Shown one piece after another: positions 7,418-56,551 of a DNA stretch of 64,000 nucleotides. This DNA comes from a virus (Duplodnaviria > Caudoviricetes), in the IMG/VR virus record IMGVR_UViG_3300005259_000074, positions 198,471 through 262,470 of that record; one strand, given 5' to 3'. Positions within the stretch are counted from its first letter, which is position 1; every line of letters begins with the position of its first letter. The position numbers and the translations under genes are program-made. The notes below the pieces were generated by a model. That model ran no database searches and was not told the origin of the DNA. It saw only the letters and a list, made by a program, of their open reading frames with translations.

Positions 7418-8269
7418 TCAGTTGTTGTTCCAGAGCCACTCGAAGAATTTGTCTCTGCTTATCGGCGCTTTTCCTTCAGTCATTCCCGAGATGTCCAAGA
7501 AAGGACTCCCGTCAGTGTACACTGGAGGCATGTCAATCCTAGGTAGTTCTACGGGGATGAAAGGCTTCTCCAGCATCTTGTTCACTAGGTCAAAATCTCT
7601 CTCGTAGATGTGGAGAGACACCGCATGGTGTGTGTACGATCCCAATTCCAAATCACGATACGACGGAAGCAGCTGTTTCCGCATGACCTGCATCAGGTAC
7701 AGGAAGAACGGAATGTCAAAACAAGTGCCGAGCACTGCGTCGTTAGACCTCATGATAGTCGACAAGTTCAACTTGTTGTCTCTGATGTTGAACACCGCAT
7801 TGAGAGTGCACACGAAGTCTTTGACACCAGGATAAGATACTTTCGGTTTGTTGAACCTAATGATAGCTTGACGGGTGTCTTTATCGTCCACTAGACTTCT
7901 GTACGCCCAAGTCCATTCTGTCAGACCGTGTTCGTTCTTCTCGTTGAAGATCAATTTACCGTAAGCAGAATTGCAAGTTCCATCTTCGTTGGCTATCTTC
8001 TTCCAGAACTTCGAGTACTTCTCGATGAACTCTAGGTCATTCCTCCCGGAGAAGTACCAGAGCAACTCGCCTTTCAAGTACTTCATTGGGATAGACCTGA
8101 CTTCGTTCTCGAAAGAATTGCTCCAGCAGTCATCTATGTGGATGACGGCATCAGTTATCTCGCGTATCTTCATCCCTCTCGGGGATGTGACGAAATCGGG
8201 CTTGTTCATTATCTCATTCAGCGCGCATCCGTAAGCTTCCGCGAACGTCTTCCCTCTTATCTCTCTCAC
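7418..8269 (-). CDS. Thymidylate-synthase-superfamily enzyme with dCMP-type specificity (dCMP hydroxymethylase/hydroxylase-like)
   Basis: TSPRG, NSAYG, DTRQA, catalytic FVCT, RSNDAVLGTCFD with Asp at the E. coli ThyA Asn177 position, YTHHAVSLHIYE. Confidence 0.85.
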   Translation of the reverse strand: MREIRGKTFAEAYGCALNEIMNKPDFVTSPRGMKIREITDAVIHIDDCWSNSFENEVRSIPMKYLKGELLWYFSGRNDLEFIEKYSKFWKKIANEDGTCNSAYGKLIFNEKNEHGLTEWTWAYRSLVDDKDTRQAIIRFNKPKVSYPGVKDFVCTLNAVFNIRDNKLNLSTIMRSNDAVLGTCFDIPFFLYLMQVMRKQLLPSYRDLELGSYTHHAVSLHIYERDFDLVNKMLEKPFIPVELPRIDMPPVYTDGSPFLDISGMTEGKAPISRDKFFEWLWNNN

Positions 8270-8802
8270 CAGCGTTTCTCCTCTGCTATCTGATCGAGTA
8301 TCGAATCTGCTATGTCACGCGGTGAAGAACTTAAGTCAGTTCTCACGGTGCGAAGATAGAACGGGCTGTGCTTGCAGAACACCGAGAATTTGCTCTGTAG
8401 TAGATCAATGTCTTTCACTGGAGGAGCAGTCTCGCCTCGAGATAGATGCCGCTGATGGACTATCTCCGGTTTGCACTCGACAAAGACGAGAGCGATGGGT
8501 AGAGATTTCCAGTGTTCTTCCAGACCTCGCAAATATTCTGGGTACCTATCTCTGTACTTCGGCCCGTACACGTACTCACCGGCCCATGCTCTGTCTAAGA
8601 CCAAGTTGCCTTCCATGATGTTGATCATCTCGAACAGCATGTCGAACTGGCCGAACTGGAAGCCGTACTTCTCTTCGACAGAGTTTCCTTTTGGGAAGGC
8701 GAAGTGGAACTGCTTTGCGTTCAGCGATCCGATCAACTCAGAGCAGATCGAGCTCTTACCCGAGCAGTCGACTCCCTCTAACACTATAGTCCTAACAGGC
8801 AT
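8266..8802 (-). CDS. dNMP (thymidylate-like) kinase
   Basis: IVLEGVDCSGKSS P-loop, LDRAW..EYVYG. Confidence 0.9.
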   Translation of the reverse strand: MPVRTIVLEGVDCSGKSSICSELIGSLNAKQFHFAFPKGNSVEEKYGFQFGQFDMLFEMINIMEGNLVLDRAWAGEYVYGPKYRDRYPEYLRGLEEHWKSLPIALVFVECKPEIVHQRHLSRGETAPPVKDIDLLQSKFSVFCKHSPFYLRTVRTDLSSSPRDIADSILDQIAEEKRW

Positions 8803-8848
8803 TTGAAATCCTCCAGTTCGCTAGATTAGAATACCTCTTAGACCCATC

Positions 8849-10078
8849 TCAGAGGTGAGTGATAGGCTGAGAATCGACTATCTTGACGAACTTCTGCCCA
8901 TCGAATCCCTCTACTGACTTCGTCTCGTCGTTGTACTTGACAAAAGAATAGTTCGTCATCTCACCTTCACCGCGGATGAACGGCAAGACTGCTGCGACCA
9001 TGTCTCTAGCAGTGCACGTCGGTACATTCTGCGCGACCATGTTGATATTCTTGCCGTTGATCTTCACCTTAGGATTGCTGTCAACTCCTGCAAGATTCAT
9101 GTCATGTGGTAGTCCCATCAAGTGCATCCACTCTCTGACATTTATCCAGCGGTCCTTCTTAGGATGGATACCATTCCACAGCACTCGGCCTTGGACTGCG
9201 TTGATATGGGAGTTGGGGATAATTATCGTGTTATCCCAGACACCCTTTCCCTCCGCAAGTTTCATGATGAGGCGTTTGCACATCCTCAGAGTGTCTTTGT
9301 CTCCCATCTCCTCGCAAACTTTCATGAGTCCTGCGACGTAGTCAGGATTCTTGTAGATCATGCTCGTGACAGATTTGCAACCGTCGATATGGTCTCTGAA
9401 ATTCTTACCGAACTGCTTGACCATCCAGTTGTAGCTTCCGGACACATCCTCGAGCTTGTCGAATCCGTGTGTGAAGTGCTTTTGGTACGTGGCATTCTTC
9501 GGAATGTCTTTCAAATAGGCGGAAAGATCCGGAGAATCGACGTTAGGCATGACGATGCTCGGGCACTTATTGCTTTTGAAGAACACGTAGAACGTGCGGT
9601 GGCGATGCTGTGGTATGCCGTGGAGATATGTGTCAGTCTTAAGCAGCATCAAAGACCTGTTGTACTTCTTAGCGATGTCCAACAGCGCATTCTGCACTTT
9701 GACTCCCGACTGGGTGAACAACCTCGGAGCGTTCTCCCCCATCGCGACAGTCGCATCGAACCTACCGAGGGCGTCTTCAGCGCTCCTGTACACCCACTTT
9801 ATCGACTCGTACTCAGCCGAAGACTGAGAATTGAGAGAGCTAAGCGCGCTACAAGGCGGGGTCATGACGATTAAATCGTATTTCTCCGATTTTGGAGCTG
9901 TCTCAGAATCCAATGACACATATGGGACGTCTTTCCAATATTCTACGAGATTCGTATCGTGTCCTTGAAATCCATCATATGAGTAGATCATATGAGGTTT
10001 TGATCCTATGGCCTTAGATGCGCCGAGGGGAAATCCTCCTATCAGTGGAATTAGTGGTGCCCATTTGATGCCCTTCAT
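8849..10078 (-). CDS. C5-cytosine DNA methyltransferase-fold protein with atypical motif I
   Basis: TPPCS (IV), GENAP (VI), HGIPQHRHRT (VIII), RWINVRE (IX), AQNVP (X); motif I reads IPLIGG instead of FxGxGG. Confidence 0.85.
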   Translation of the reverse strand: MKGIKWAPLIPLIGGFPLGASKAIGSKPHMIYSYDGFQGHDTNLVEYWKDVPYVSLDSETAPKSEKYDLIVMTPPCSALSSLNSQSSAEYESIKWVYRSAEDALGRFDATVAMGENAPRLFTQSGVKVQNALLDIAKKYNRSLMLLKTDTYLHGIPQHRHRTFYVFFKSNKCPSIVMPNVDSPDLSAYLKDIPKNATYQKHFTHGFDKLEDVSGSYNWMVKQFGKNFRDHIDGCKSVTSMIYKNPDYVAGLMKVCEEMGDKDTLRMCKRLIMKLAEGKGVWDNTIIIPNSHINAVQGRVLWNGIHPKKDRWINVREWMHLMGLPHDMNLAGVDSNPKVKINGKNINMVAQNVPTCTARDMVAAVLPFIRGEGEMTNYSFVKYNDETKSVEGFDGQKFVKIVDSQPITHL

Positions 10079-11283
10079 TAATGCTCCTTGGTTATTGAGG
10101 CGACGGCTTTCATCACAGTGTCATCGAGATGATCGCCGTTGAAATACTTGTCAGCCATGAGGCTGTATATGTGGTCTAATATCTTATCGTACTCATCTTT
10201 GTGAGTCTCCAGATGCTCTATCCTATCCCACATCTCCTTAGGAGTGTTGACTCTGAGTATCTCGGGAACATCGAACAACTTATCGACATCGTACTTGGGG
10301 TGGAAGAACGGGATGATGCCGTAGTACAGCATCTTCCAGAATTTCTGCGTCACGAATCCCGGTAGTTTCTTGAAGAACGGTGGAATGAAAGTGTACTTAC
10401 TGTCCCAGAATATGAACTCGACGTTCTTTATAGCGCACTCCTCGAATACGCCCGGCCACTTAGCCGTGAAATCTTTATCCCACTTTCCGTATATCTTCAT
10501 GCCGTCACGGTGAGAAGGATCATTCAAGAGCCATTCTTCGACTATGCCTTGACGATCGCCTCCGCCGTTCAACCCCATGACGAACTTCGTAGACTTCTTC
10601 ATAGTCCTGAAGTCTATCTTCGGTTCATCGAGTAAGAACACTGTCTCCACTCCGGCGTATTTGAACTTGTTCTCCGCCATGCGGTACTCTTGTGAATCGT
10701 ACTTTCCTCCGGCTATCCTCCGGTTGTACTTGGTGATGTTGATCTGAGACAGGATGAATTTCTCGTCGTTCAAGATGTCTCTGGATTTCTTCGGAATATA
10801 CCGGGGGTCACCATTGATGAGGAAATACGGAACTCCCGTCATGTTGAGAGTATGATATATCGGAGCTGCATACACTTCGAACATCAACAGGCACTTGGCA
10901 TCGTGCAGTTCGCCCATCACAGTCTTCGTCCCGACGCCTGGGACGTTGATTCCACCTTCCGGCCCTTGGTATATGATTCCAGCATCGAACTTTATTCCAG
11001 TCTCCTGCACCTTTTTAAGCATCCAGTGGCACAGTTCTTTCCGGCAGTCCTTGATCCCCACTGGTATGTCTTTGAACATATCTACGATGTTATCGGGGAT
11101 GTCTATGCCGGACAGACGAGCTTTCTTGATGTCAGACCTGCCGATCAAGAAGAATTTGTCCTCCGGATGTCGGCGCGCTAGCATCGTGTACAGCAGAGGA
11201 GCTTCTTCATCTCCTGCGTACATTGACCACTTGCGTTTGTCGAAATATATCGAACGGCCGATCTTACCTATCAAGTAATTCAT
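10078..11283 (-). CDS. DNA glycosyltransferase, T4 beta-glucosyltransferase/arabinosyltransferase-like GT-B fold
   Basis: Segments GDPRY, GGGDR..IVEEWL, KIYGKW, GFVTQKFWKMLYYGIIPFFHPKYD, LRVNTPKEMWDRIEHL parallel T4 BGT TDIRL, GQRE..MVEFL, EFFG, NFITLRVWE, FYVNNRAELIDRVNEL. Confidence 0.8.
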   Translation of the reverse strand: MNYLIGKIGRSIYFDKRKWSMYAGDEEAPLLYTMLARRHPEDKFFLIGRSDIKKARLSGIDIPDNIVDMFKDIPVGIKDCRKELCHWMLKKVQETGIKFDAGIIYQGPEGGINVPGVGTKTVMGELHDAKCLLMFEVYAAPIYHTLNMTGVPYFLINGDPRYIPKKSRDILNDEKFILSQINITKYNRRIAGGKYDSQEYRMAENKFKYAGVETVFLLDEPKIDFRTMKKSTKFVMGLNGGGDRQGIVEEWLLNDPSHRDGMKIYGKWDKDFTAKWPGVFEECAIKNVEFIFWDSKYTFIPPFFKKLPGFVTQKFWKMLYYGIIPFFHPKYDVDKLFDVPEILRVNTPKEMWDRIEHLETHKDEYDKILDHIYSLMADKYFNGDHLDDTVMKAVASITKEH

Positions 11284-12875
11284 ATGAGTCCATCTTTCTT
11301 CAGTAATTTTGTCAGCATGTTCTTCCCCAAATAATACAGAAACAGGACGTAAGGCCAGTCATGCAGCGCGGCAATATTGAGGTATATGAGAGCTGTGAGG
11401 TAGTCAACCTTCTTCACGTCGTATCGGTTGCTCTTCAACCACTCGTCGAACGCCTTCTCCACTTCAACTAAACGGTGCGGTCTATCGATGTCGATGACTG
11501 CATGATTGTCATCGATATTTTTCACCATAAATTTCCCCTCGTGCACCGATTTGTGCGGGACTATCAACCCGTGCTTGAACTTCGCGAAGTCGTAGTAAGC
11601 GTCGCCAAATTCTCTGTCACCGCAGAAATTTTGCCGCCAGTCGAGGAGACCTGGTGTCCCATCATCTTTGATGATGATGTTCTCGTTGTGAAAATCTCCG
11701 TGGAACCTCGATATGTGATAGTCATTCGTTAAGAATTTCCAAGGGACTCTGTCTAGAAGATCTTTCGTGTTGTTGCCGTTGGGATCTAAGTCATTTATGA
11801 TGTCGACTTTATCAGTCATCTCGAAGTTTTTGTAGAACTCGCTAACCCTCTTGTACGTCTTGATCCTATAGAATTCATCCATGACTTTGTGTTGGTCGAC
11901 ACCAGTGATGCGAGGAGATCTCACATTCCACATCTTGTCTTTGACTTCATCGAGAACTTTGATGACGTTGACGTCATTGACGACGTCGGACATGATGGTT
12001 CCCTCTATCAATTCATAGGTGTAGCAATACTCGTTGTGGGACAGCAGTTGGGGGAGAAGTTCTATCGGAAGATTCAGCATCCTCTCGACTCTGTCGGAAA
12101 TGAACTTCTTATCGACTGAGAACTTGATGACTTTGTCATCATGAAACCAGATGGCTTCTCCGTCTTTCTCCAATATGTTATGCTCAGTGTCTCTGAACTT
12201 CTTCTTAGCGGCTTCGAGGGCCAGCACGTTTCCCGTGTCGTACCATTCTCTGATCTCAACCCCCTTAATGTTGGTCAACGACTTGAGCGCATAAGACTCA
12301 CCCACAGGCACAGCTTCACTCTCATGCATGTGCTTCCAGAACAGCTGATAGTCTTTAACACCACAGAGTCCGATGTAAGCGTTGCGGGCGCCAAAAGCGT
12401 CTTTGGGATTTATAGAAGCCACGTTCCCGACATCATCGAGTGTGATGGTCCGATACTTTGATGCATCGGATTTCGCGTCGAGAACGTAATACGCCATCCA
12501 ATTGTTGCGAGTTGGATCGAAATCAATCACATCTTTCGCTATAGTGTCATTGGAACAGAATACGAATGGACACTGCAGTTCGCTCTCTGCTGACAAAAGG
12601 GTGTAGCCTAGGCCGGACTTAGGTCCTTCGTAGTCGTCGACTGTGACAAAAGTCTTGTTGACATGGGGGAATATCTGCTCTACTACGGCCTTAACCATGT
12701 CACCTTTGTACCCGAGTATGATGACGAACTCGTCAGCGTGAGGGAAAGACTCGATGATGTGCGCGATGACCGGGATCTGCCCGATAGTCAACAGCGCTTT
12801 ATTGATGTTCTTCGAGTAGTCTCTGACCCTCGTCCCAAGACCGGCAGTCGGAATGACGACTTTATACTTACTCAA
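11280..12875 (-). CDS. Fused sugar-phosphate nucleotidyltransferase and aminoglycoside/choline-kinase-like sugar kinase
   Basis: N-term VVIPTAGLGTRV..NKAL, CSND, WYDTG; C-term FHGDFHNENI..LLDWRQ..GDAYYDFAK. Confidence 0.9.
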   Translation of the reverse strand: MSKYKVVIPTAGLGTRVRDYSKNINKALLTIGQIPVIAHIIESFPHADEFVIILGYKGDMVKAVVEQIFPHVNKTFVTVDDYEGPKSGLGYTLLSAESELQCPFVFCSNDTIAKDVIDFDPTRNNWMAYYVLDAKSDASKYRTITLDDVGNVASINPKDAFGARNAYIGLCGVKDYQLFWKHMHESEAVPVGESYALKSLTNIKGVEIREWYDTGNVLALEAAKKKFRDTEHNILEKDGEAIWFHDDKVIKFSVDKKFISDRVERMLNLPIELLPQLLSHNEYCYTYELIEGTIMSDVVNDVNVIKVLDEVKDKMWNVRSPRITGVDQHKVMDEFYRIKTYKRVSEFYKNFEMTDKVDIINDLDPNGNNTKDLLDRVPWKFLTNDYHISRFHGDFHNENIIIKDDGTPGLLDWRQNFCGDREFGDAYYDFAKFKHGLIVPHKSVHEGKFMVKNIDDNHAVIDIDRPHRLVEVEKAFDEWLKSNRYDVKKVDYLTALIYLNIAALHDWPYVLFLYYLGKNMLTKLLKKDGLI

Positions 12876-13630
12876 AGTGCTTCTCCTATGAGTTTTCTCA
12901 AGTTGCAGATATTCTGGTGTATAGTGTTCCGTCGATCATCTCTGTTAGACGGAAGATTCTTAAAGATTGTCGAGGTCCCACACACGATGTTGTTGAATGC
13001 CATATTGGTGATGTCCTTGACAGTAGTAGGTTTCACCCCACCATCTAGCTGTATCATGTCGAGTTCTTTGCCGAAACGAGCATTCATCTCCCTACCGATA
13101 GTTATCGCGTGGAATTCGCGTGAAGTCTGGACCAACACGCCCGGGTGTATGCCCATCATGACCAGCATGTTGATCTCGTTAGCTCCGATGACGTAATCGA
13201 GATGGTGGTAGTTGGACGTCAAGTTCATTGCGATGCCGGGTTTCTTTCCTCCAGCGCGGATCCTATCGCACAGCCGATAGGTGTTCTCCTCGTTTCCATC
13301 AAAATGGAAATTGATGTACTCGACATTAGCTATCTTAGTGAATGCATCTATGGCCAGTGTTGGTTCATCGACCATCAGGTGGACATCCATCGGGATATCA
13401 GTAGTGTCAGCGATGCGCGATGCGATTTCAGGATATATCCCGTAACGTGGGACATAGTGTCCGTCCATCACGTCAATGTGCATGTAGTCGACACCAGCGT
13501 CGACGCATGTCTTCACGTCTTCACCAAGCGTCATCGGATCCATGCATATGACTGACACTGATATGAAATTCTTGTCTATCATCGCATCACTCCAAAATTG
13601 AATGGTTGTAGCTGATCCATCTAGCATCAA
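12872..13630 (-). CDS. rpe: Ribulose-phosphate 3-epimerase family protein (Rpe/AlsE)
   Basis: HIDVMDGHYVP, DVHLMV, YINFH, MGIHPG, QLDGGV motifs. Confidence 0.92.
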   Translation of the reverse strand: MMLDGSATTIQFWSDAMIDKNFISVSVICMDPMTLGEDVKTCVDAGVDYMHIDVMDGHYVPRYGIYPEIASRIADTTDIPMDVHLMVDEPTLAIDAFTKIANVEYINFHFDGNEENTYRLCDRIRAGGKKPGIAMNLTSNYHHLDYVIGANEINMLVMMGIHPGVLVQTSREFHAITIGREMNARFGKELDMIQLDGGVKPTTVKDITNMAFNNIVCGTSTIFKNLPSNRDDRRNTIHQNICNLRKLIGEAL

Positions 13631-14129
13631 GCTGAAGGTCTTTCACTATATCGTGAGCCATAGCGTCGAACAGAACGAATGTGAACTGCTCAAATGCAGT
13701 CTTCATCATCTGTTTGGACTTGAAATCACCATAAGTGAGACACACTGAAGACAACTTTCCGATCGGTGTGTCGCTCGATGAGCACACCGATATGATCGTC
13801 GCTCCAGCATCTTTAGCCTGGGATGCCAGCAGTGCGATCGTCGGAGTAGATCCGGAAGATGAATTGACGATCACCAAATCACCGGAGCCCACTCGTGGGA
13901 CTACGGTGTCGCCGATGAACGTCGCATCATAACCGATGTGTCCCAACCTCATGATGAAAGCTCTGAGAGAGTAACCCATGCGACCTGCGCCCAGACCGAC
14001 GATCTTCTTATCGATTCCTTTTCTGATCTTCAGCTCTCCGATGAAATCCTTGTATTTCACTTCATCCAACGATTCATACAATTCGGTCATCTCGTTGATA
14101 GATGTCAGGAAACTGCCTCCGGTGATCAC
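13587..14129 (-). CDS. SIS-domain phosphosugar isomerase, HxlB/PHI-like
   Basis: GAGRMGYSLRAFIMRLGHIG..IGDTVVP..GDLVIVNSSSGST..FEQ. Confidence 0.88.
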   Translation of the reverse strand: MITGGSFLTSINEMTELYESLDEVKYKDFIGELKIRKGIDKKIVGLGAGRMGYSLRAFIMRLGHIGYDATFIGDTVVPRVGSGDLVIVNSSSGSTPTIALLASQAKDAGATIISVCSSSDTPIGKLSSVCLTYGDFKSKQMMKTAFEQFTFVLFDAMAHDIVKDLQLDARWISYNHSILE

Positions 14130-14623
14130 TTGTTCATCTCCTTTATTATCATCTGAGCTACATAGAATAACACACCCTCTCCTCCTCCGACTGGAAGTAT
14201 CTTCACATTAGAAGGAAGATCGATGAATCTAGTGCGCGACGCCGTGTCTATCAGAGAGTTCTTCGGAGCGAAACCGACCTCACACAACTTCATTGCTTCT
14301 ACGTCATAATAGCCATCGCCGACAAAAGCTACTCCAGAATATGGATCTCCATTGATTATGTCGCTGATGAACTTAATTCTCTCAGATTCAGACACTTGGT
14401 GTGATTCTACTTTCATGTCAATAAGACGACACTCAGTGATAGGCCAACCGCGCTTGTCAGCTGATATGGCTATGATGTTGATACCAGCGTTTCTTAACAT
14501 CTTCACGCCATCAGCGTCATGTGCGCCAAATGTCTTTGACTGTTTACCGTCTTTGGTGTAGACGAAACGTCCATCAGTCAGAACACCGTCTACGTCGGTG
14601 ATCACAGTCTTAATGTGCAGCAT
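14126..14623 (-). CDS. HAD-superfamily sugar phosphatase, KdsC-like
   Basis: ITDVDGVLTDG, AFVGDGYYD, GGGEG. Confidence 0.92.
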   Translation of the reverse strand: MLHIKTVITDVDGVLTDGRFVYTKDGKQSKTFGAHDADGVKMLRNAGINIIAISADKRGWPITECRLIDMKVESHQVSESERIKFISDIINGDPYSGVAFVGDGYYDVEAMKLCEVGFAPKNSLIDTASRTRFIDLPSNVKILPVGGGEGVLFYVAQMIIKEMNK

Positions 14624-14692: not shown

Positions 14693-17287
14693 TCACAAAG
14701 AGTTGATATCTGACACTTCTTCTTTAGTCGGGTCAAAGCTCTTCCAATTGTGGTTCCTCTCGAATCCCTTCAGAGGACTGAGCACGACTTTCTCGAACAT
14801 GGTCATGTAATCTATCGCAAACATCTCGTCGAACTCGGTCGGCCACGTGTCTTTCCAACCTATGACCTCTATGCCGTAGTCGTTCCTCTTCACGTAGACG
14901 TACCTCAGCCTATCACCTGGCTGTATAGTCTGGTACTTATGCGCTAAGTTCAACTTCTCAACGAGTTGGTTGTAATATATCGCACCTTTTGCATGAGCTC
15001 CCGCGCCCTTCCCAGCTTTCAAGAACCCAATGACTTCTTTCTCCGTAGAGTAGTTCTTAATGTATCCCAGGTCTTCAGGCTTCATAGAGGTGAACGCGTT
15101 CCACGTCGATGATATGAAATCTCTGTACTGGGATGAAGTCCATTTTTCAGTCATTCCCCGCTTTATCGCATCTGCTAAGATGCCTTTGACTTTGAACGGC
15201 AGTTCGTTCTTCTTGACATCTACACCGACGAATTTGAACTTGTCGACCGAGAGACCTTCTAGATCTCTCAAGTGGAGGACGTAGTGTTTCTTCGCGATGA
15301 AGTCTCCTTCGCTGCACAGAGTCTCCCTTTTGAACTCGATTCGTTTCAGAGGAGAACCGAATATCTCCTTAGTCACCCTGAAACAGTTCTCATTCATTCT
15401 ATTGACAAAATTGTCATCCAACTCTCTGCATATCTTCTGGATGTTTGTCTTCGTCCATTTGACGTCGCCGGAACCTACTACCTTCTCTGTCATCTTACTT
15501 AAGTCAAGATATAGACTGTCCGTGTCGCCAGCAATGACGATATCTGAAGTAGCACTATACATCTCAGAAAACAACTTGTTAGCATACTCAGCTGATTCTT
15601 TGATGATCCTCTGACCGGATAGAGTAACAGCTTCAGCGTTGTCTAGGTCGTATAGAGGAAAGTGCTCACTACCTACTTGTCCATAGATGCTGTTCAAGAA
15701 GACTTTGTACGCGCCTTGAATGATGTCGTGCTGGTCGGCTTGCTTCTTCAGTTCTTTAATCTGCGTGTCATCTTTAGACATTCCATTCTCGATCAGCGCT
15801 TGTGCTTTCTTCTGAAAAGTCTGAGCTTGTTTTTTATGACTCTTCCTAGAATCATACAGTTTCTCGAGGAAAGATGGAATGATGCCTTTCTTCACATCTG
15901 GAAGAATGTAGAGAACTTTGTTGTTTGAGATGATCGACTTCGTGCGAAGAGCAGCAAACTCGTCTTTCGACAGTCGCTTGATCTTTCCGTCGGCTTTCTT
16001 TATCTCGACGTAACCGTCCATCTCCTGTGTGACTTTGCCTATCTTGGTCTCAGGAGATATGTTGAGAGTTATCATCGTGTTCGGGTACAGAGAGTTCAAG
16101 TCGAGGGATGTCACCCCTTTGTCGAAGAATCCGACTTGCGGCTCGAAGACAAATGCGCCTTCGAACCCCTCGTTCTGACCTTTATCATCTCTCGAATCAG
16201 ATAGCAGTTTCACGCCGTTCTTTCGCGCCTGGATCGTGAGAGCTCCGTAGATGTAGGGCTGAGACTTGAAGATGTTCTCATATTCGACTAACCCCATGTT
16301 GCATATGTATCGAGTCAGATCAATGAATTTCTTCTTCTTGTCTAACTTCACGCACAACTCTACGTCTCGCACGTTGTACTTGACGAAGAGGTCGAAGTCT
16401 TTCTCGGCGAACTCTCTGATAGTGTCGTATGGATTCTTTATCTTAGTCACACCCAGTTCATCAGCGCAGATGTCGCCGAGTTTGTACGACTCTTTCGATC
16501 CAAGCTCGAACTTCGCTTTGTAGAGGATGTAGTAGTCGAGGATAGACACTCCAGTCACCTTATAAGACGCTATCGGCATCGAGTCTCCCCGCTGCTCGCG
16601 GTAGCTCTTCCTCACTTCTCCGAGGGGGGACAAGACGTTGATCGCTCCATCGTCTAGTATCTTGTCGCAGCGGTTGACTAAGTAAGGCAAGTCGAACCGC
16701 TCGACGTTCCACCCACTCAGTACGTCCGGACAGTTGTCTTTCCACCACGAGAGGAAAGATTTCAACAGTTCTGTCTCGTCGTCAAAGCAGAGCAGTTCTG
16801 TCGGCACTTCACTGCCAGACAAGTCGGCTGTCCCGAGAGTCCACGTGTGATACTTTTCACTCAGCGTGTCAAACACTGTTATCACGTTGACGGGTTCTTT
16901 GGCTTCTTCTGGCTCCGGGAATGCGTTCTTGACTTGCACTTCTATGTCCAGAAAGAACGTCCTGAGGGGGAAAGATGCGAAAGCTGGAGAATCTATCACA
17001 TTCTCAAACTGCTGGACTAGGAATTCTCTGGCAGGGGGAAGACACTCGAATATCCTACAATCTGGATTCTGGTTGAGCCACTTGCGGCGCAATGATATGT
17101 TGGTGAAGTCTTTCCTGCGCAGCATGGTGCTGAACATCGATTTCACCGAACCCCTGATGTCTTCGTAATAGAGGTACGAATTGTGGGGGAACACTCTGGT
17201 GACGCGGTTGCCGTTCTCGTCCCACGTGAACAGCACGATTTCACCCTGGAACGAATCATTGATCCTGTAATGGATGTTTCGGTACAT
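14693..17287 (-). CDS. gp43: Family B DNA polymerase (gp43)
   Basis: Exo DIEV, GWNVERFD, YNVRD; pol DLNSLYP, KVFLNSIYG, AGDTDS, KKHY. Confidence 0.98.
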   Translation of the reverse strand: MYRNIHYRINDSFQGEIVLFTWDENGNRVTRVFPHNSYLYYEDIRGSVKSMFSTMLRRKDFTNISLRRKWLNQNPDCRIFECLPPAREFLVQQFENVIDSPAFASFPLRTFFLDIEVQVKNAFPEPEEAKEPVNVITVFDTLSEKYHTWTLGTADLSGSEVPTELLCFDDETELLKSFLSWWKDNCPDVLSGWNVERFDLPYLVNRCDKILDDGAINVLSPLGEVRKSYREQRGDSMPIASYKVTGVSILDYYILYKAKFELGSKESYKLGDICADELGVTKIKNPYDTIREFAEKDFDLFVKYNVRDVELCVKLDKKKKFIDLTRYICNMGLVEYENIFKSQPYIYGALTIQARKNGVKLLSDSRDDKGQNEGFEGAFVFEPQVGFFDKGVTSLDLNSLYPNTMITLNISPETKIGKVTQEMDGYVEIKKADGKIKRLSKDEFAALRTKSIISNNKVLYILPDVKKGIIPSFLEKLYDSRKSHKKQAQTFQKKAQALIENGMSKDDTQIKELKKQADQHDIIQGAYKVFLNSIYGQVGSEHFPLYDLDNAEAVTLSGQRIIKESAEYANKLFSEMYSATSDIVIAGDTDSLYLDLSKMTEKVVGSGDVKWTKTNIQKICRELDDNFVNRMNENCFRVTKEIFGSPLKRIEFKRETLCSEGDFIAKKHYVLHLRDLEGLSVDKFKFVGVDVKKNELPFKVKGILADAIKRGMTEKWTSSQYRDFISSTWNAFTSMKPEDLGYIKNYSTEKEVIGFLKAGKGAGAHAKGAIYYNQLVEKLNLAHKYQTIQPGDRLRYVYVKRNDYGIEVIGWKDTWPTEFDEMFAIDYMTMFEKVVLSPLKGFERNHNWKSFDPTKEEVSDINSL

Positions 17288-17325: not shown

Positions 17326-18168
17326 TCAGATGCTGTCGAGGACTTTTCTGATTTCTTCTTCGAAGCGGCATTCCTTCAAAATGCTGACGATCTTGGAGAA
17401 CTTATCAGATGGAATTCGCTGAAAATCAGTTGAACCACCGTTGGCGAAATAAGATACGGTGTCAGAAGAAGTAGACAGTCTGAAATAGTTATTGCCTTTC
17501 AGGAAGTCTAGGCTGAAATTTATCGACAACCCGGATGTATCATTTGCGGCGTTGTCATAACTTATTCCCGGTGGGTTGACGAGGTAGTAGTGCTTGTAGT
17601 TCTTTCCTAAGAGGCGCTTGAGCTTCAGGAGTCCACCCCAGAAATACTCGAGGTCTGGCGGTTCCGTCCAGCCGAACTGACCGTAGTGCTTTGGGTCTTT
17701 CCTGAGCAAGTTGGACCTGTACCCGGAGATAGACAGGGGGTGGTCAACCCAAACTGGGCGCTTCACGTAGGCATTCACATACGCTATCTTCGGTAAGTAG
17801 TCTTTGGTGACGTCGAGGTCTTCGTATTCTTTGAACAGCTGGATAGACACTATGGCCGCGGTGTTGGGTCCTGTAGCTGGATTCGGCGAGGACATCAGAG
17901 CTGATGCTTCGTCGAGCATCTTTCGCGCAAGATTCTCCCTGTAACCTCTAGCTCGGAATTCGTTGCAGCAGATGAAAAAATAGGCGACTAACGCCTGAGA
18001 ATATCCTTGCCACATCACGAAAGCGGGATGTCTTCTCCACGCCTTCTTCTCTCTGTCGAGCAAGAGGTGTATCATCTGATAGCACTCTAGCCGTTGCTTT
18101 CCGAGCCTCTTAGTGTCCAGACACCTGACGCTAGAGAGAAAGTTGTCGTAAGGCATGAATGTATTCAC
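17326..18168 (-). CDS. Pyrimidine-dimer DNA glycosylase/DenV-superfamily protein with C-terminal extension
   Basis: MNTFMPY..LDTKRLGKQRLECYQ..WRRHPAFVMWQGY..SNLLRKDP..Y. Confidence 0.75.
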   Translation of the reverse strand: MNTFMPYDNFLSSVRCLDTKRLGKQRLECYQMIHLLLDREKKAWRRHPAFVMWQGYSQALVAYFFICCNEFRARGYRENLARKMLDEASALMSSPNPATGPNTAAIVSIQLFKEYEDLDVTKDYLPKIAYVNAYVKRPVWVDHPLSISGYRSNLLRKDPKHYGQFGWTEPPDLEYFWGGLLKLKRLLGKNYKHYYLVNPPGISYDNAANDTSGLSINFSLDFLKGNNYFRLSTSSDTVSYFANGGSTDFQRIPSDKFSKIVSILKECRFEEEIRKVLDSI

Positions 18169-18656
18169 AAGTTGAACTTCTCGACTACGACGTTATTCTT
18201 TAGCAGCATCTCTTTGACTTCATTGTCGTCAAAGCCGTATTCAGCTCTACAGTACTCATCGCTGTAGACTATTCTTTTGACTCCAGCTTGGATTAACATC
18301 GGAAGACAGCGACAACACGGCTGTAGAGTGCTAAACATAGTCGAGCCTTCGATCTTCACCCCGTTCTTAGCGGCAGCTAAAATCGTGTTGAGCTCCGAAT
18401 GTATCTCATTTTTGAGAGACCACTCGTGGTGTTCTCTCCTCTCTTCATCCATGATGTATCCGGCGTCTTTCCACTGAGGAAACTTGTCGCAGCAGTTGAT
18501 AGATCCCGCGACAGTCCCGTTGACGCCCATAGAGACGACTCTGTCATCTCTGACGAGGATCGCTCCTACCTTTATAGACACACACTTAGACAACTTAGCT
18601 GCGGAGAAGGCCATCTCCATGAAAACTCGGTCTTTAAGAGAGCTCATCGCTCTCAC
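18165..18656 (-). CDS. cd: dCMP deaminase
   Basis: KVGAIL..GVNG, IHSELN, PCCRC. Confidence 0.93.
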   Translation of the reverse strand: MRAMSSLKDRVFMEMAFSAAKLSKCVSIKVGAILVRDDRVVSMGVNGTVAGSINCCDKFPQWKDAGYIMDEERREHHEWSLKNEIHSELNTILAAAKNGVKIEGSTMFSTLQPCCRCLPMLIQAGVKRIVYSDEYCRAEYGFDDNEVKEMLLKNNVVVEKFNL

Positions 18657-18925: not shown

Positions 18926-19492
18926 TTAGGTGATACCGTTGCCAGTCGAACCAAATCCGTCACTGCCGCGCGTAGATGTGAATGAGTAGAGTTCATTCAC
19001 ACTCGCGATCTCCACTAGTTCTTCGTCATTTATCGGGATCATCACTAGCTGAATGATCTTCTCCCCTGCTGATATACTTACGGAAGTGTCAGACAAGTTG
19101 GCGATAGATATGTGTGCTTCACCTTGGTAACCTGCATCTAACAGGTTTGCCATGAACACTATGCCTTTTTTGGAAGACACGCCAGACTTATTGCAAGCGA
19201 TCAGCGCCCAACCTTTAGGGATGTCAAAATGAATCCCTGCTGGTATTTTCACTCTGCCGAGAGGGCCGATCACTATAGATGACACGATTTCATCTTCAGC
19301 ACTCTCATAGATATTGCATATCTTAGAACGGAAGGTCACATTGAATGAATCATGAAAATTGAAATTGCCTCGACGCAGATCAGTGGGTACAAACATATCA
19401 AAACCTGCGTCAAGGGCATGTCCCCTGACAGGAGACTTGACGTCTCTTACCTTCGAGAACCTTATCTTAGGATACTTCACACTTTCCTCCAT
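18926..19492 (-). CDS. dut: Trimeric dUTPase
   Basis: AGFD, NKSG, LDAGYQGE, IIQL, RGSDGFGSTG. Confidence 0.95.
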   Translation of the reverse strand: MEESVKYPKIRFSKVRDVKSPVRGHALDAGFDMFVPTDLRRGNFNFHDSFNVTFRSKICNIYESAEDEIVSSIVIGPLGRVKIPAGIHFDIPKGWALIACNKSGVSSKKGIVFMANLLDAGYQGEAHISIANLSDTSVSISAGEKIIQLVMIPINDEELVEIASVNELYSFTSTRGSDGFGSTGNGIT

Positions 19493-56075: not shown

Positions 56076-56157
56076 TGGTGCACCTAGCAAGATTCGAACT
56101 TGCGATTTCAGTTCCGCTACAGTTAACGGTTTAGAAGACCGCTCTGACTATAGGTGC
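56076..56157 (-). ncRNA. D-armless tRNA-like RNA, anticodon UCU (Arg-like)
   Basis: Acceptor GCACCTA/TAGGTGC, A+CCA, GCGGT-CTTCTAA-ACCGT, GCAAG-TTCGAAT-CTTGC, 8 nt in place of the D-arm. Confidence 0.75.
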
Positions 56158-56230
56158 TGGTACCCCTTCTGGCTGTGACACCAGGACCTTCTCCTTAGGA
56201 GGGAGACGCTCTTCACTGAGCTAAAGGGGC
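56158..56230 (-). tRNA. tRNA-Arg(CCT)
   Basis: TCTCC-CTCCTAA-GGAGA, D-arm GCTCAGTGAAGAGC, atypical T-loop, CCA. Confidence 0.8.
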
Positions 56231-56238
56231 ATGAAAGT

Positions 56239-56314
56239 TGGTCGGACATGTCAGGGTTGAACTGACGACTTCCGCGCCCCAAACGCGGCGCGCTTCCAAC
56301 TGCGCTAATGTCCG
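56239..56314 (-). tRNA. tRNA-Pro(TGG)
   Basis: CCGCG-TTTGGGG-CGCGG, CCA. Confidence 0.9.
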
Positions 56315-56391
56315 TGGTGCACCTAATAGGGGATGATCCTATATACTCCGGGTTCGTAGCCCGGCGCCTTGTCCAGTTAGGCCATAGGTGC
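56315..56391 (-). tRNA. tRNA-Arg(ACG)
   Basis: CCGGG-CTACGAA-CCCGG, T-loop ATCATCC, CCA. Confidence 0.82.
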
Positions 56392-56399
56392 ATAATACT

Positions 56400-56474
56400 T
56401 GGCTGCCCAGCCTTGATTCGAACAAGGATTGACTGATTCAGAATCAGCAGTGCTACCTATTACACTACTGGGCA
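56400..56474 (-). tRNA. tRNA-Gln(CTG)
   Basis: GCTGA-TTCTGAA-TCAGT, TTCGAAT, GCCA. Confidence 0.92.
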
Positions 56475-56478
56475 ATTT

Positions 56479-56551
56479 TGCTACCCCGTCTTGATTCGAA
56501 CAAGAATCAACTGATCCAAAATCAGCCGTGCTACCGTTACACTACGGGGTA
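56479..56551 (-). tRNA. tRNA-Gln(TTG)
   Basis: GCTGA-TTTTGGA-TCAGT, TTCGAAT. Confidence 0.9.

Follow-up and report, generated by a model that had tools for sequence, protein, structure and literature searches.

Gene content and position of the operon

The stretch of DNA analysed here, called the window, comprises 64,000 nucleotides (nt) and makes up the final 64 kb of one virus record of 262,470 bp (IMGVR_UViG_3300005259_000074), the completeness of which is estimated at 97%. The element of interest is an operon at 7418-14623, in which eight minus-strand genes run in one direction and mostly overlap; it lies directly 3' of the gene for a family-B DNA polymerase (PolB). We moderately favour the reading that this operon is a two-stage cytosine hypermodification system of a 262-kb marine T4-like phage. 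The genes are listed below, beginning with the one next to PolB.

14126-14623, minus strand: HAD-IIIA phosphatase of the KdsC/YrbI family (TIGR01670, 1.1e-17)
13587-14129, minus strand: SIS-domain sugar-phosphate isomerase, 6-phospho-3-hexuloisomerase (HxlB)-like (TIGR03127, 1.7e-31)
12872-13630, minus strand: Rpe-family ketose-phosphate 3-epimerase (PF00834, 1.5e-36)
11280-12875, minus strand: AfhE-like fusion of a sugar-1-phosphate nucleotidyltransferase (N-terminal) and an APH-type kinase (C-terminal) (PF12804/PF00483 and PF01636)
10078-11283, minus strand: GT-B glycosyltransferase (GT), proposed to act on 5-hydroxymethylcytosine (5hmC, hmC) in DNA; fold closest to T4 beta-glucosyltransferase
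8849-10078, minus strand: C5-cytosine-methyltransferase-fold protein, called MT-like (PF00145, 4.7e-13; 49.7 bits, cut-off 22)
8266-8802, minus strand: Tmk-like P-loop kinase, proposed 5-hydroxymethyl-dCMP (hm-dCMP) kinase (phrog_761, 7.8e-13)
7418-8269, minus strand: putative dCMP hydroxymethylase of the ThyA fold (gp42-type), a thymidylate synthase (TS) homologue (PF00303, 2.9e-21)

These enzyme families had been named, at these positions, in a preliminary description of the window, and family profile matches bear all of them out. That description counted seven tightly overlapping genes. The number is eight, and the overlaps are as described, with 1-4 nt at most junctions (4, 4, 4, 1 and 4 nt). 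The single gap inside the operon, 46 nt, lies between the MT-like and Tmk-like genes. The start of the epimerase gene is more likely at 13582, as called in a 93%-identical relative. Catalytic motifs are intact in every operon enzyme.

The operon had been placed immediately downstream of gp43, and it begins 69 nt after PolB (14693-17287, minus strand; PF00136/PF03104; phrog_262, 6.8e-176), a gp43-like polymerase and the anchor of T4-like synteny. Genes for an RNase T-type exonuclease, a RecA/UvsX homologue and a DnaB/gp41-type helicase lie 3' of the operon. The order PolB, modification genes, UvsX, gp41 is the same as in T4 and RB69, so the T4/RB69-like setting that had been suggested is supported by synteny between gene 43 and uvsX/41. 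PolB is only about 31% identical to cyanomyovirus gp43, which indicates a distant T4-like phage.

The gene combination noted in the preliminary description recurs elsewhere. The whole operon is kept gene for gene in one relative, with 93-96% identity, and the part that comprises the sugar, GT and MT-like genes is kept in two further phage lineages (loci L016 and L101). Relatives of the MT-like gene occur at no fewer than 583 IMG/VR loci (at least), of which 80 were fetched and scanned with our own hidden Markov models. A megablast search of the operon against 50,697 phage records returned zero matches, and no public sequencing runs were listed for it.

Predicted base modification and proposed NDP-sugar cassette

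The TS homologue was aligned with E. coli ThyA, T4 gp42, RB69 gp48, a DLP3 relative, a Pootjesviridae enzyme and others, and positions are given in E. coli numbering. The window enzyme exhibits the signature E58 W80 D143 C146 D169 G173 D177, which is identical to that of T4 gp42. The catalytic Cys146 of the ThyA fold is present, the dCMP-type D177 takes the place of Asn177, and D143 takes the place of Leu143 as in T4 gp42. The change of Asn177 to Asp denotes use of dCMP, and that of Leu143 to Asp or Glu denotes water access and a non-methyl (hydroxymethyl) product (PMC13326640). RB69 gp48 and the other verified 5-hydroxy-dCMP synthases in the alignment have F58 A80 E143 N169 V173. Position 169 is D in the window enzyme and N in RB69, DLP2, P10VF and PTm5; the Asp169-to-Asn change marks flavin-dependent ThyA homologues that make 5-hydroxycytosine (Lee et al., NAR 2026, PMC13326640). 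The best PDB matches of the TS homologue are the CMP hydroxymethylase MilA and T4 dCMP hydroxymethylase. The predicted product is 5-hydroxymethyl-dCMP because the active-site signature matches that of T4 gp42. The DNA of RB69 and DLP3 carries arabinosylated 5-hydroxycytosine and not hmC (Lee et al., NAR 2026, PMC13326640), so the window operon would not be an RB69-type system. A ThyX gene is encoded elsewhere in the genome, so dTMP synthesis is covered.

Two other TS homologues were noted. The closest in the phage collection, which is 49% identical and has the gp42 signature, lies at L003:12001-12864 in LR756500.1, a 462-kb uncultured phage; within 12 kb, no other protein of the window operon was found. 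Cyanophage S-TIM5 gp076 (L001:5757-6593) is a dCMP-type enzyme (D177) with C143 and H147, which is neither the gp42 nor the ThyA pattern.

The kinase gene overlaps the TS gene by 4 nt. The kinase shows weak matches to Thymidylate_kin and AAA_18, a P-loop of GVDCSGKS and 22% identity to RB69 gp45 (E 0.001), and the role proposed for it is that of an hm-dCMP kinase. Two likely or candidate pool enzymes are encoded upstream of PolB, together with a DenV-like glycosylase.

18165-18656, minus strand: dCMP deaminase, a likely supporting pool enzyme (PF00383, 3.5e-21)
18926-19492, minus strand: dUTPase/DCD-fold protein (188 aa, of which about 70 form an N-terminal extension; PF00692, 1.5e-14; PF22769, 4.2e-4)

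A dCMP deaminase is present in 32 of the 80 related loci, and dCMP deaminases adjoining dCMP-type TS homologues are typical of cytosine-modified metavirome contigs (bioRxiv 10.1101/2024.12.05.627091). The dUTPase/DCD-fold protein is a candidate dUTPase. It could also be the missing dCTPase, since dUTPase-fold genes adjoin the TS homologue in several related modules (L012, L013 and L014). A PF18909 profile search of the record gave no match, and the control genomes were silent too.

The first four genes of the operon would make a nucleoside-diphosphate (NDP) sugar. The HAD protein scores 64 bits with TIGR01670 (cut-off 107) and has the nucleophile motif DVDGV at residue 10. Its homologues share 48% identity in L016, 40% in L015 and 46% in the bacterial locus L102. 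It is proposed to remove the terminal phosphate of a sugar bisphosphate, and its role may be analogous to that of the AfhF-type phosphatase, a small EcbF-BcbF/PNKP-like HAD protein; the phosphatases RB69 gp51 and DLP2_043 match TIGR01689 (EcbF-BcbF), unlike the KdsC/YrbI-like window protein. The SIS protein scores 109.5 bits with TIGR03127 (HxlB; cut-off 160) and matches KpsF/GutQ only at E 0.0036. Its best PDB sequence matches are AF1796, MJ1247 and YckF, and its phosphate-binding motif is SSSGST. RB69 gp55 and DLP2_041 score 113 and 96 bits with KpsF and have no HxlB match.

The epimerase scores 136.6 bits with TIGR01163 (cut-off 212.6) and 109 bits with the AlsE family NF007266 (cut-off 271). 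In alignment it keeps the metal and acid-base residues of E. coli Rpe. The sequence of loop 6 is HPGVLVQ, as against PGF(G/A)GQ in Rpe and AlsE, and the enzyme falls in a separate subfamily, whose approximately 55 clusters have scores well over those of canonical Rpe. Because the catalytic His and Asp are kept, we count it, as judged by its residues, as an active Rpe-family member of uncertain substrate and not as Rpe proper.

The fusion enzyme matches phrog_4098 over its full length (4.7e-17), a family that includes DLP2_042 (848 bits) and RB69 gp53 and gp52. The AfhE-type enzyme (RB69 gp52:53) is an arabinose-5-phosphate kinase as well as a UDP-arabinose pyrophosphorylase. The motifs GLGTR at residue 12 and HGDFHNEN at residue 392 are intact. 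The window fusion is 43-48% identical to the fusions in L015, L016, L101 and the bacterial loci L100 and L102, and its local identity to AfhE-type enzymes is only 22-34%. With the fusion enzyme as query, tblastn matched just one marine single-cell virus, and profile methods were needed to link the enzyme to RB69.

The unit of HAD, SIS, Rpe-like and fusion genes also occurs in other marine phages (L016 and L101) and in marine bacterial surface-glycan loci, where all four proteins share 38-57% identity with those of the window. The two bacterial cassettes are listed below.

L100:7971-12516: Rhodobacterales bacterium FZCC0188, WVSI01000004.1; a Methyltransf_23 gene is inserted
L102:7974-11297: JGI Ga0369852_1008096, a 205-kb contig with ribosomal genes

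Their neighbours include Bac_transf, GT1, ABC transporter and NAD-dependent epimerase genes. Since the cassette stays together in phages and bacterial glycan loci alike, the four genes look like a portable, self-sufficient NDP-sugar pathway of which the epimerase is an integral part. An arabinose pathway would not require an epimerase, which makes a sugar other than plain arabinose probable. The candidates, which come from chemistry and not from computation, are a xylo- or lyxo-pentofuranose from xylulose-5-phosphate and an allo- or altro-hexose from fructose-6-phosphate. The possibility that the Rpe-like gene merely boosts flux to arabinose-5-phosphate was considered and is disfavoured. The gene travels with those of the isomerase, phosphatase and fusion in bacteria and phages, and its substrate loop is unlike that of Rpe and AlsE.

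Glycosyltransferase and methyltransferase-fold partner

The GT has 401 aa and only a sub-threshold match to Pfam Glyco_trans_1_2 (16.4 bits, cut-off 25). Its AlphaFold model (mean predicted local confidence, pLDDT, 92.9) exhibits a GT-B fold. In a Foldseek search of the PDB, ranks 1-5 are all T4 beta-glucosyltransferase (BGT), with E 5.6e-8 and TM scores of 0.51-0.67, and many other GT-B enzymes score only slightly below. The profile alignment (hhalign) with T4 b-gt shows weak similarity (E 2.9e-4) over 229 columns of the nucleotide-sugar (UDP-sugar) domain. On the model, the GT is proposed to put the sugar on 5hmC in DNA. The GT family comprises 50 metagenome clusters. It was not found in the bacterial cassettes (L100 and L102), and BLAST detected no similarity to the RB69 and DLP2 arabinosyltransferases.

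The MT-like protein is encoded directly after the GT. The best fold matches of its model (pLDDT 85.9) are M.HaeIII, DNMT1 and M.HhaI. The family comprises 311 clusters in the protein collection, and an alignment of 35 diverse members exhibits the invariant motifs PLIGG (motif I), PPC (C76), ENA(P) (E115), QHRHR (QxRxR), RE (R315 E316) and QNV. PLIGG stands in place of FxGxG, with Leu for the first Gly, whereas motif I of E. coli Dcm is the canonical LFAGIGG. There is no conserved motif II acid after beta2. Only motifs IV-VIII and IX-X align with profiles of solved methyltransferases (MTases). The first 60 residues do not align to Pfam, PDB profiles or E. coli Dcm, and the hhalign comparison of the family with Dcm covers only residues 31-176 at a probability of 37%. 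The stretch that separates motif VIII from motif IX is not variable but conserved among family members.

Sensitive methods were needed to place this family. A phmmer search of the PDB with the protein gave no match and a profile search did; a single MT-like sequence as query retrieved none of the related loci, for which an alignment query was needed. No BLAST-level similarity to CmoX was detected. A search of the genome for CmoA (TIGR00740) gave no match, with the control positive in 10 of 14 genomes. The lack of CmoA in the genome and the retention of Asn in motif X led us to reject a CmoX-type reading of the MT-like protein. A TET-type route has no support, though the Tet_JBP (PF12851) profile search, which gave no match in the 262-kb record, was silent in the control genomes too. 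A prediction of a complex between the GT and the MT-like protein scored 0.00, which speaks neither for nor against binding. No paper describing this MT-like partner was found in the literature searched.

The gene neighbourhood is informative. A GT gene or a gene similar to 5-hydroxymethyluracil (hmU) DNA kinases lies upstream of the MT-like gene, on the same strand, in 73 of the 80 loci: the window GT family in 67, a gene like T4 alpha-glucosyltransferase (AGT) in three and an hmU-DNA-kinase-like gene in three. The junction between partner and MT-like gene is 60 nt or less in 54 loci, and 34 of these are 4-nt overlaps. The usual gene order is TS, dCMP deaminase, fusion, HAD, GT, MT-like. The gp42-type signature is present in 30 of the 37 nearby TS homologues, and the GT and MT-like pair also occurs on very different phage backbones. 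We favour, from these sequence comparisons, a role in which the MT-like protein would act on DNA cytosines by the usual attack of Cys on C6 and fill gaps left by 5-hydroxymethyl-dC (hm-dC) substitution. This is a guess; the genes that accompany the MT-like gene have in common enzymes that derivatise hmC and not any single sugar, and the cofactor site of the protein is remodelled.

Several related modules were noted. The cultured Pseudoalteromonas phage vB_Psh_XG4 (PP712099; L002:100-6580) has genes for a gp42-type TS, a small HAD protein, a fusion, two GTs and an MT-like protein in a row; the module is unannotated in PP712099, and the phage is a tractable model for it. S-TIM5 gp080 (L001:8977-10194) is a member of the MT-like family (IIPLVGG) without an adjacent GT. 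In L012:3603-12150, on a 242-kb contig with a PolIII-alpha polymerase, genes for a gp42-type TS, DUF6378, dUTPase, inositol-1-phosphate synthase and Methyltransf_21 share a module with the MT-like gene; an hmU-DNA-kinase-like protein of 484 aa is encoded directly upstream of the MT-like gene, which is followed by an NAD-dependent epimerase gene. Modules of this type are also found in L051, L056 and L057. On the T4-like contig of L005 (7556-11625), genes for a gp42-type TS, a 168-aa protein and a member of the T4 alpha-glucosyltransferase family (PF11440) precede the MT-like gene, which shares a stop/start with the PF11440 gene and is followed by a gene for a MazG-like dGTP_diPhyd_N protein. 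Another T4-like contig (L004:7806-14733) has the MT-like gene with two radical-SAM enzymes, an HbpS-like protein and a gp42-type TS homologue, and this cluster may represent another hmC-derived modification. In L101, a relative of the window phage, a NUMOD3 homing-endonuclease gene (L101:12682-13434) lies between the GT and MT-like genes, and the modification region holds two further NUMOD3 genes.

Loci L078-L086, L094 and L097, which apparently belong to phages of about 300 kb, exhibit the order fusion, GT, an extra gene of about 1 kb, MT-like. Lineages with the nucleotidyltransferase-kinase fusion, GT and MT-like genes in the absence of TS would favour a DNA-level hydroxymethylase. Such lineages cannot be claimed from these contigs, which are estimated to be 15-25% complete; one record of the lineage has a gp42-type TS 52 kb away.

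Two features outside the operon were also observed. The domain of the DenV-like pyrimidine-dimer glycosylase (17326-18168, minus strand) spans the first 82 of 280 residues, and the rest is without a family match. A tRNA gene cluster at 54704-56551 on the minus strand holds nine genes: three for Gln, two each for Pro and His, and one each for Cys and Arg.

Interpretation and comparison with known systems

The favoured reading can be set out as follows. Before replication, the gp42-type ThyA homologue would, on its active-site signature, convert dCMP to hm-dCMP. The Tmk-like kinase and host NDK would raise this nucleotide to the triphosphate, and phage PolB would incorporate it. ThyX would supply dTMP, and the dCMP deaminase and dUTPase-fold protein would shape the pools. 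By homology to AfhE/AfhF logic and NDP-heptose synthesis, the cassette would start from a central ketose phosphate and end with an NDP-sugar. The Rpe-like enzyme would epimerise C3, the HxlB-like enzyme would isomerise the product, the kinase half of the fusion would phosphorylate the anomeric position, the KdsC-like HAD protein would remove the terminal phosphate, and the nucleotidyltransferase half would make the NDP-sugar. The sugar may be a non-arabino pentofuranose, a rare hexose or still arabinose. After replication, the BGT-fold GT would place this sugar on 5hmC in DNA. The MT-like protein would modify the cytosines that escaped hm-dC substitution, leaving none bare, by transferring either methyl from S-adenosylmethionine (SAM) or hydroxymethyl without SAM.

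Much of this had been proposed in the preliminary description. Its pre-replicative C5 modification of dCMP is supported by Asp177 and Asp143/Asp169 in the TS homologue and by the separate ThyX for dTMP. Its post-replicative glycosylation with a phage-made NDP-sugar agrees with the AfhE-type fusion and with T4 BGT as the best structural match of the GT. The epimerase and the MTase-fold gene were rightly set apart from known systems, as both are absent from those of RB69 and DLP3. That the operon is complete, as it had been called, is unproven, as a MazG-type dCTPase was not found in the record.

Several points weigh against the favoured reading. All chemistry in the phage and its relatives is deduced from sequence. 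The isomerase, epimerase and phosphatase score below curated family cut-offs, so their substrates are open. The kinase activity on hm-dCMP is only proposed, and RB69 gp45, the Tmk-like counterpart, is not the enzyme shown to phosphorylate modified dCMP (PMC13326640). The same cassette serves bacterial surface glycans, so the sugar could go elsewhere. None of the dCTPase candidates PRA-PH, MazG and dGTP_diPhyd_N was found in the record, estimated to be 97% complete, so complete replacement of C is not assured. The role given to the MT-like protein is pure inference, and a fully hmC-substituted genome offers a C5 enzyme little substrate.

Two alternatives concern the operon as a whole. It is improbable that the cassette and GT decorate virion proteins or the host surface while the TS, kinase and MT-like proteins give plain 5hmC and/or 5-methylcytosine. 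The bacterial polysaccharide loci, where the cassette lies beside Bac_transf, GT1 and ABC-transporter genes, fit such a use, but the GT family is not found in them and its best structural matches are a DNA enzyme, T4 BGT. Moreover, the GT lies between the fusion and the MT-like protein in dozens of phage lineages, mostly with 4-nt overlaps, it is accompanied by gp42-type TS and dCMP deaminase genes, and the operon sits among replication genes. Even less credence is given to an RB69/DLP3/HY126-type (Afh) system, in which 5-hydroxy-dCMP comes from a flavin-dependent TS homologue and arabinofuranose, donated by UDP-Araf, is joined by an ether bond. Such a system occupies the same slot after gene 43, its AfhE-type enzymes share a PHROG with the fusion, and the composition of isomerase, phosphatase, fusion, GT, Tmk-like kinase and TS is common to both. 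Against it, the window TS has E58, W80, D169 and G173 where the verified 5-hydroxy-dCMP synthases have F58, A80, N169 and V173, the isomerase is HxlB-like and not KpsF/KdsD-like, the phosphatase is KdsC-like and not EcbF-like, and the GT has no BLAST similarity to the RB69 and DLP2 transferases.

Two further alternatives concern the MT-like protein. There is a considerable chance, though short of even, that it is an ordinary SAM-dependent, sequence-specific m5C methyltransferase for anti-restriction or regulation, linked to the GT by inheritance only. PF00145 is matched above the gathering threshold, the protein retains the catalytic motifs and the Asn of motif X, its fold is matched by M.HaeIII and M.HhaI, and the S-TIM5 family member is away from any GT. 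The invariant PLIGG motif I, the lack of a conserved motif II acid among the 35 members, the 60 N-terminal residues that do not align to solved MTase profiles and the conserved, not diverse, region between motifs VIII and IX argue the other way, as does the coupling, on different backbones, to three unrelated enzymes presumed to derivatise hmC (BGT-like, AGT-like and hmU-DNA-kinase-like). We doubt that the MT-like protein acts on 5hmC or its derivatives, with Cys attacking C6 and the 5-CH2-OR group leaving and being replaced, so that the GT or kinase products would be intermediates. Its constant partners are expected to derivatise the hmC hydroxyl, including the hmU-DNA-kinase-like proteins in L012, L051, L056 and L057, and C5-methyltransferases can reportedly swap the hydroxyl of 5hmC for thiols in vitro. 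However, no enzyme that supplies a nucleophile is evident in the operon, a glycoside is a poor leaving group, and no computed result speaks directly for such an exchange.

The favoured two-stage reading joins a T4-type hydroxymethylase, an RB69-type NDP-sugar route and an MT-like partner with a remodelled cofactor site, a combination unreported in the literature searched. Glycosylation of cytosine is the classic way in which phages withstand restriction enzymes and CRISPR nucleases, and several epigenome-sequencing tools derive from such bases. Tentatively, and with doubt outweighing expectation, we suggest that the PLIGG family is a novel kind of DNA enzyme and/or that the operon adds a sugar never seen on DNA. 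The family may be a SAM-independent cytosine C5 hydroxymethylase or an hmC-exchanger that acts alongside hmC GTs and kinases in hundreds of marine phages; either activity would be new for the fold and a possible reagent. The sugar may be a xylo- or lyxo-pentofuranose or a hexose of the allo/altro type, made by a cassette shared with marine bacterial surface glycans. If it is new, natural DNA chemistry is extended, and the bacterial cassette homologues offer an independent route to its identity. With so many loci of the module in ocean viromes, it probably shapes phage-host warfare at scale.

Bacterial NDP-heptose synthesis uses the isomerase GmhA, the kinase HldE/HddA, the HAD-IIIA phosphatase GmhB and the nucleotidyltransferase HldC/HddC. 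The window cassette is similar in its SIS isomerase, anomeric kinase, HAD-IIIA phosphatase for a terminal phosphate and nucleotidyltransferase, but other families serve each step and a 3-epimerase is added. Two systems resemble the MT-like part. In phages with an MT, a 5mYOX/TET dioxygenase and GTs, a C5-MTase-fold gene is likewise clustered with DNA glycosyltransferases, and 5hmC arises after replication through the successive action of MT and dioxygenase (Burke et al. 2021, PMC8256090; bioRxiv 10.1101/2023.12.21.572611); the window differs in its gp42-type TS, and the Tet_JBP profile matched neither its record nor the control genomes. CmoX, with CmoA, makes 5-carboxymethylcytosine in Synechococcus phage S-B43; it is a C5-MTase-fold enzyme with a non-SAM cofactor (PDB 8yf3), the carboxylate of which is bound by Arg350 (PMC12783734). 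The MT-like protein has the same PPC-type motif IV and 8yf3 among its fold matches, whereas it keeps Asn in motif X, lacks BLAST-level similarity to CmoX and comes from a genome without CmoA.

Shewanella phage Thanatos (PMC12838424), likewise T4-like and marine, has a pentose on its cytosine and encodes a fusion protein of the window's type. Its TS homologue makes 5-hydroxy-dC (PMC13326640), and no epimerase, isomerase or C5-MTase-fold gene has been reported for it (PMC12838424). The Afh systems of RB69, DLP3 and HY126 (PMC13326640; for the arabinosyl-5-hydroxycytosine of HY126, He et al., as cited therein) share with the window a phage-encoded route of isomerase, kinase/nucleotidyltransferase fusion, HAD phosphatase and GT, a fusion in the same PHROG, a Tmk-like kinase adjoining the TS homologue and the genomic position. 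They differ from it in the base (5-hydroxycytosine, where 5hmC is predicted for the window), in the isomerase (KdsD-like and not HxlB-like), in the phosphatase (EcbF-like and not KdsC-like), in a GT family unrelated by sequence and in the lack of the Rpe-family epimerase and the MT-like protein. On TS signature, isomerase type and phosphatase type, the operon, as read from its predicted proteins, is outside the RB69 Afh group. The RB69 comparison in the preliminary description stands for the AfhE-type fusion and falls for the base and the isomerase family; the phosphatase family differs too.

T4 (gp42, gp1, gp56, alpha- and beta-glucosyltransferase) and the window share the TS signature, the slot between gene 43 and uvsX/41, the GT fold and a dCMP deaminase. 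Unlike the window, T4 uses host UDP-glucose and has neither a sugar pathway nor a C5-MTase-fold partner; the window kinase is Tmk-like with no established likeness to gp1, and a gp56-type dCTPase was not found in the window record. The operon is a copy of neither T4 nor RB69: it combines the T4-type base with the RB69-type strategy of a self-made NDP-sugar, through a different cassette that is shared with bacteria, and adds the MT-like partner.

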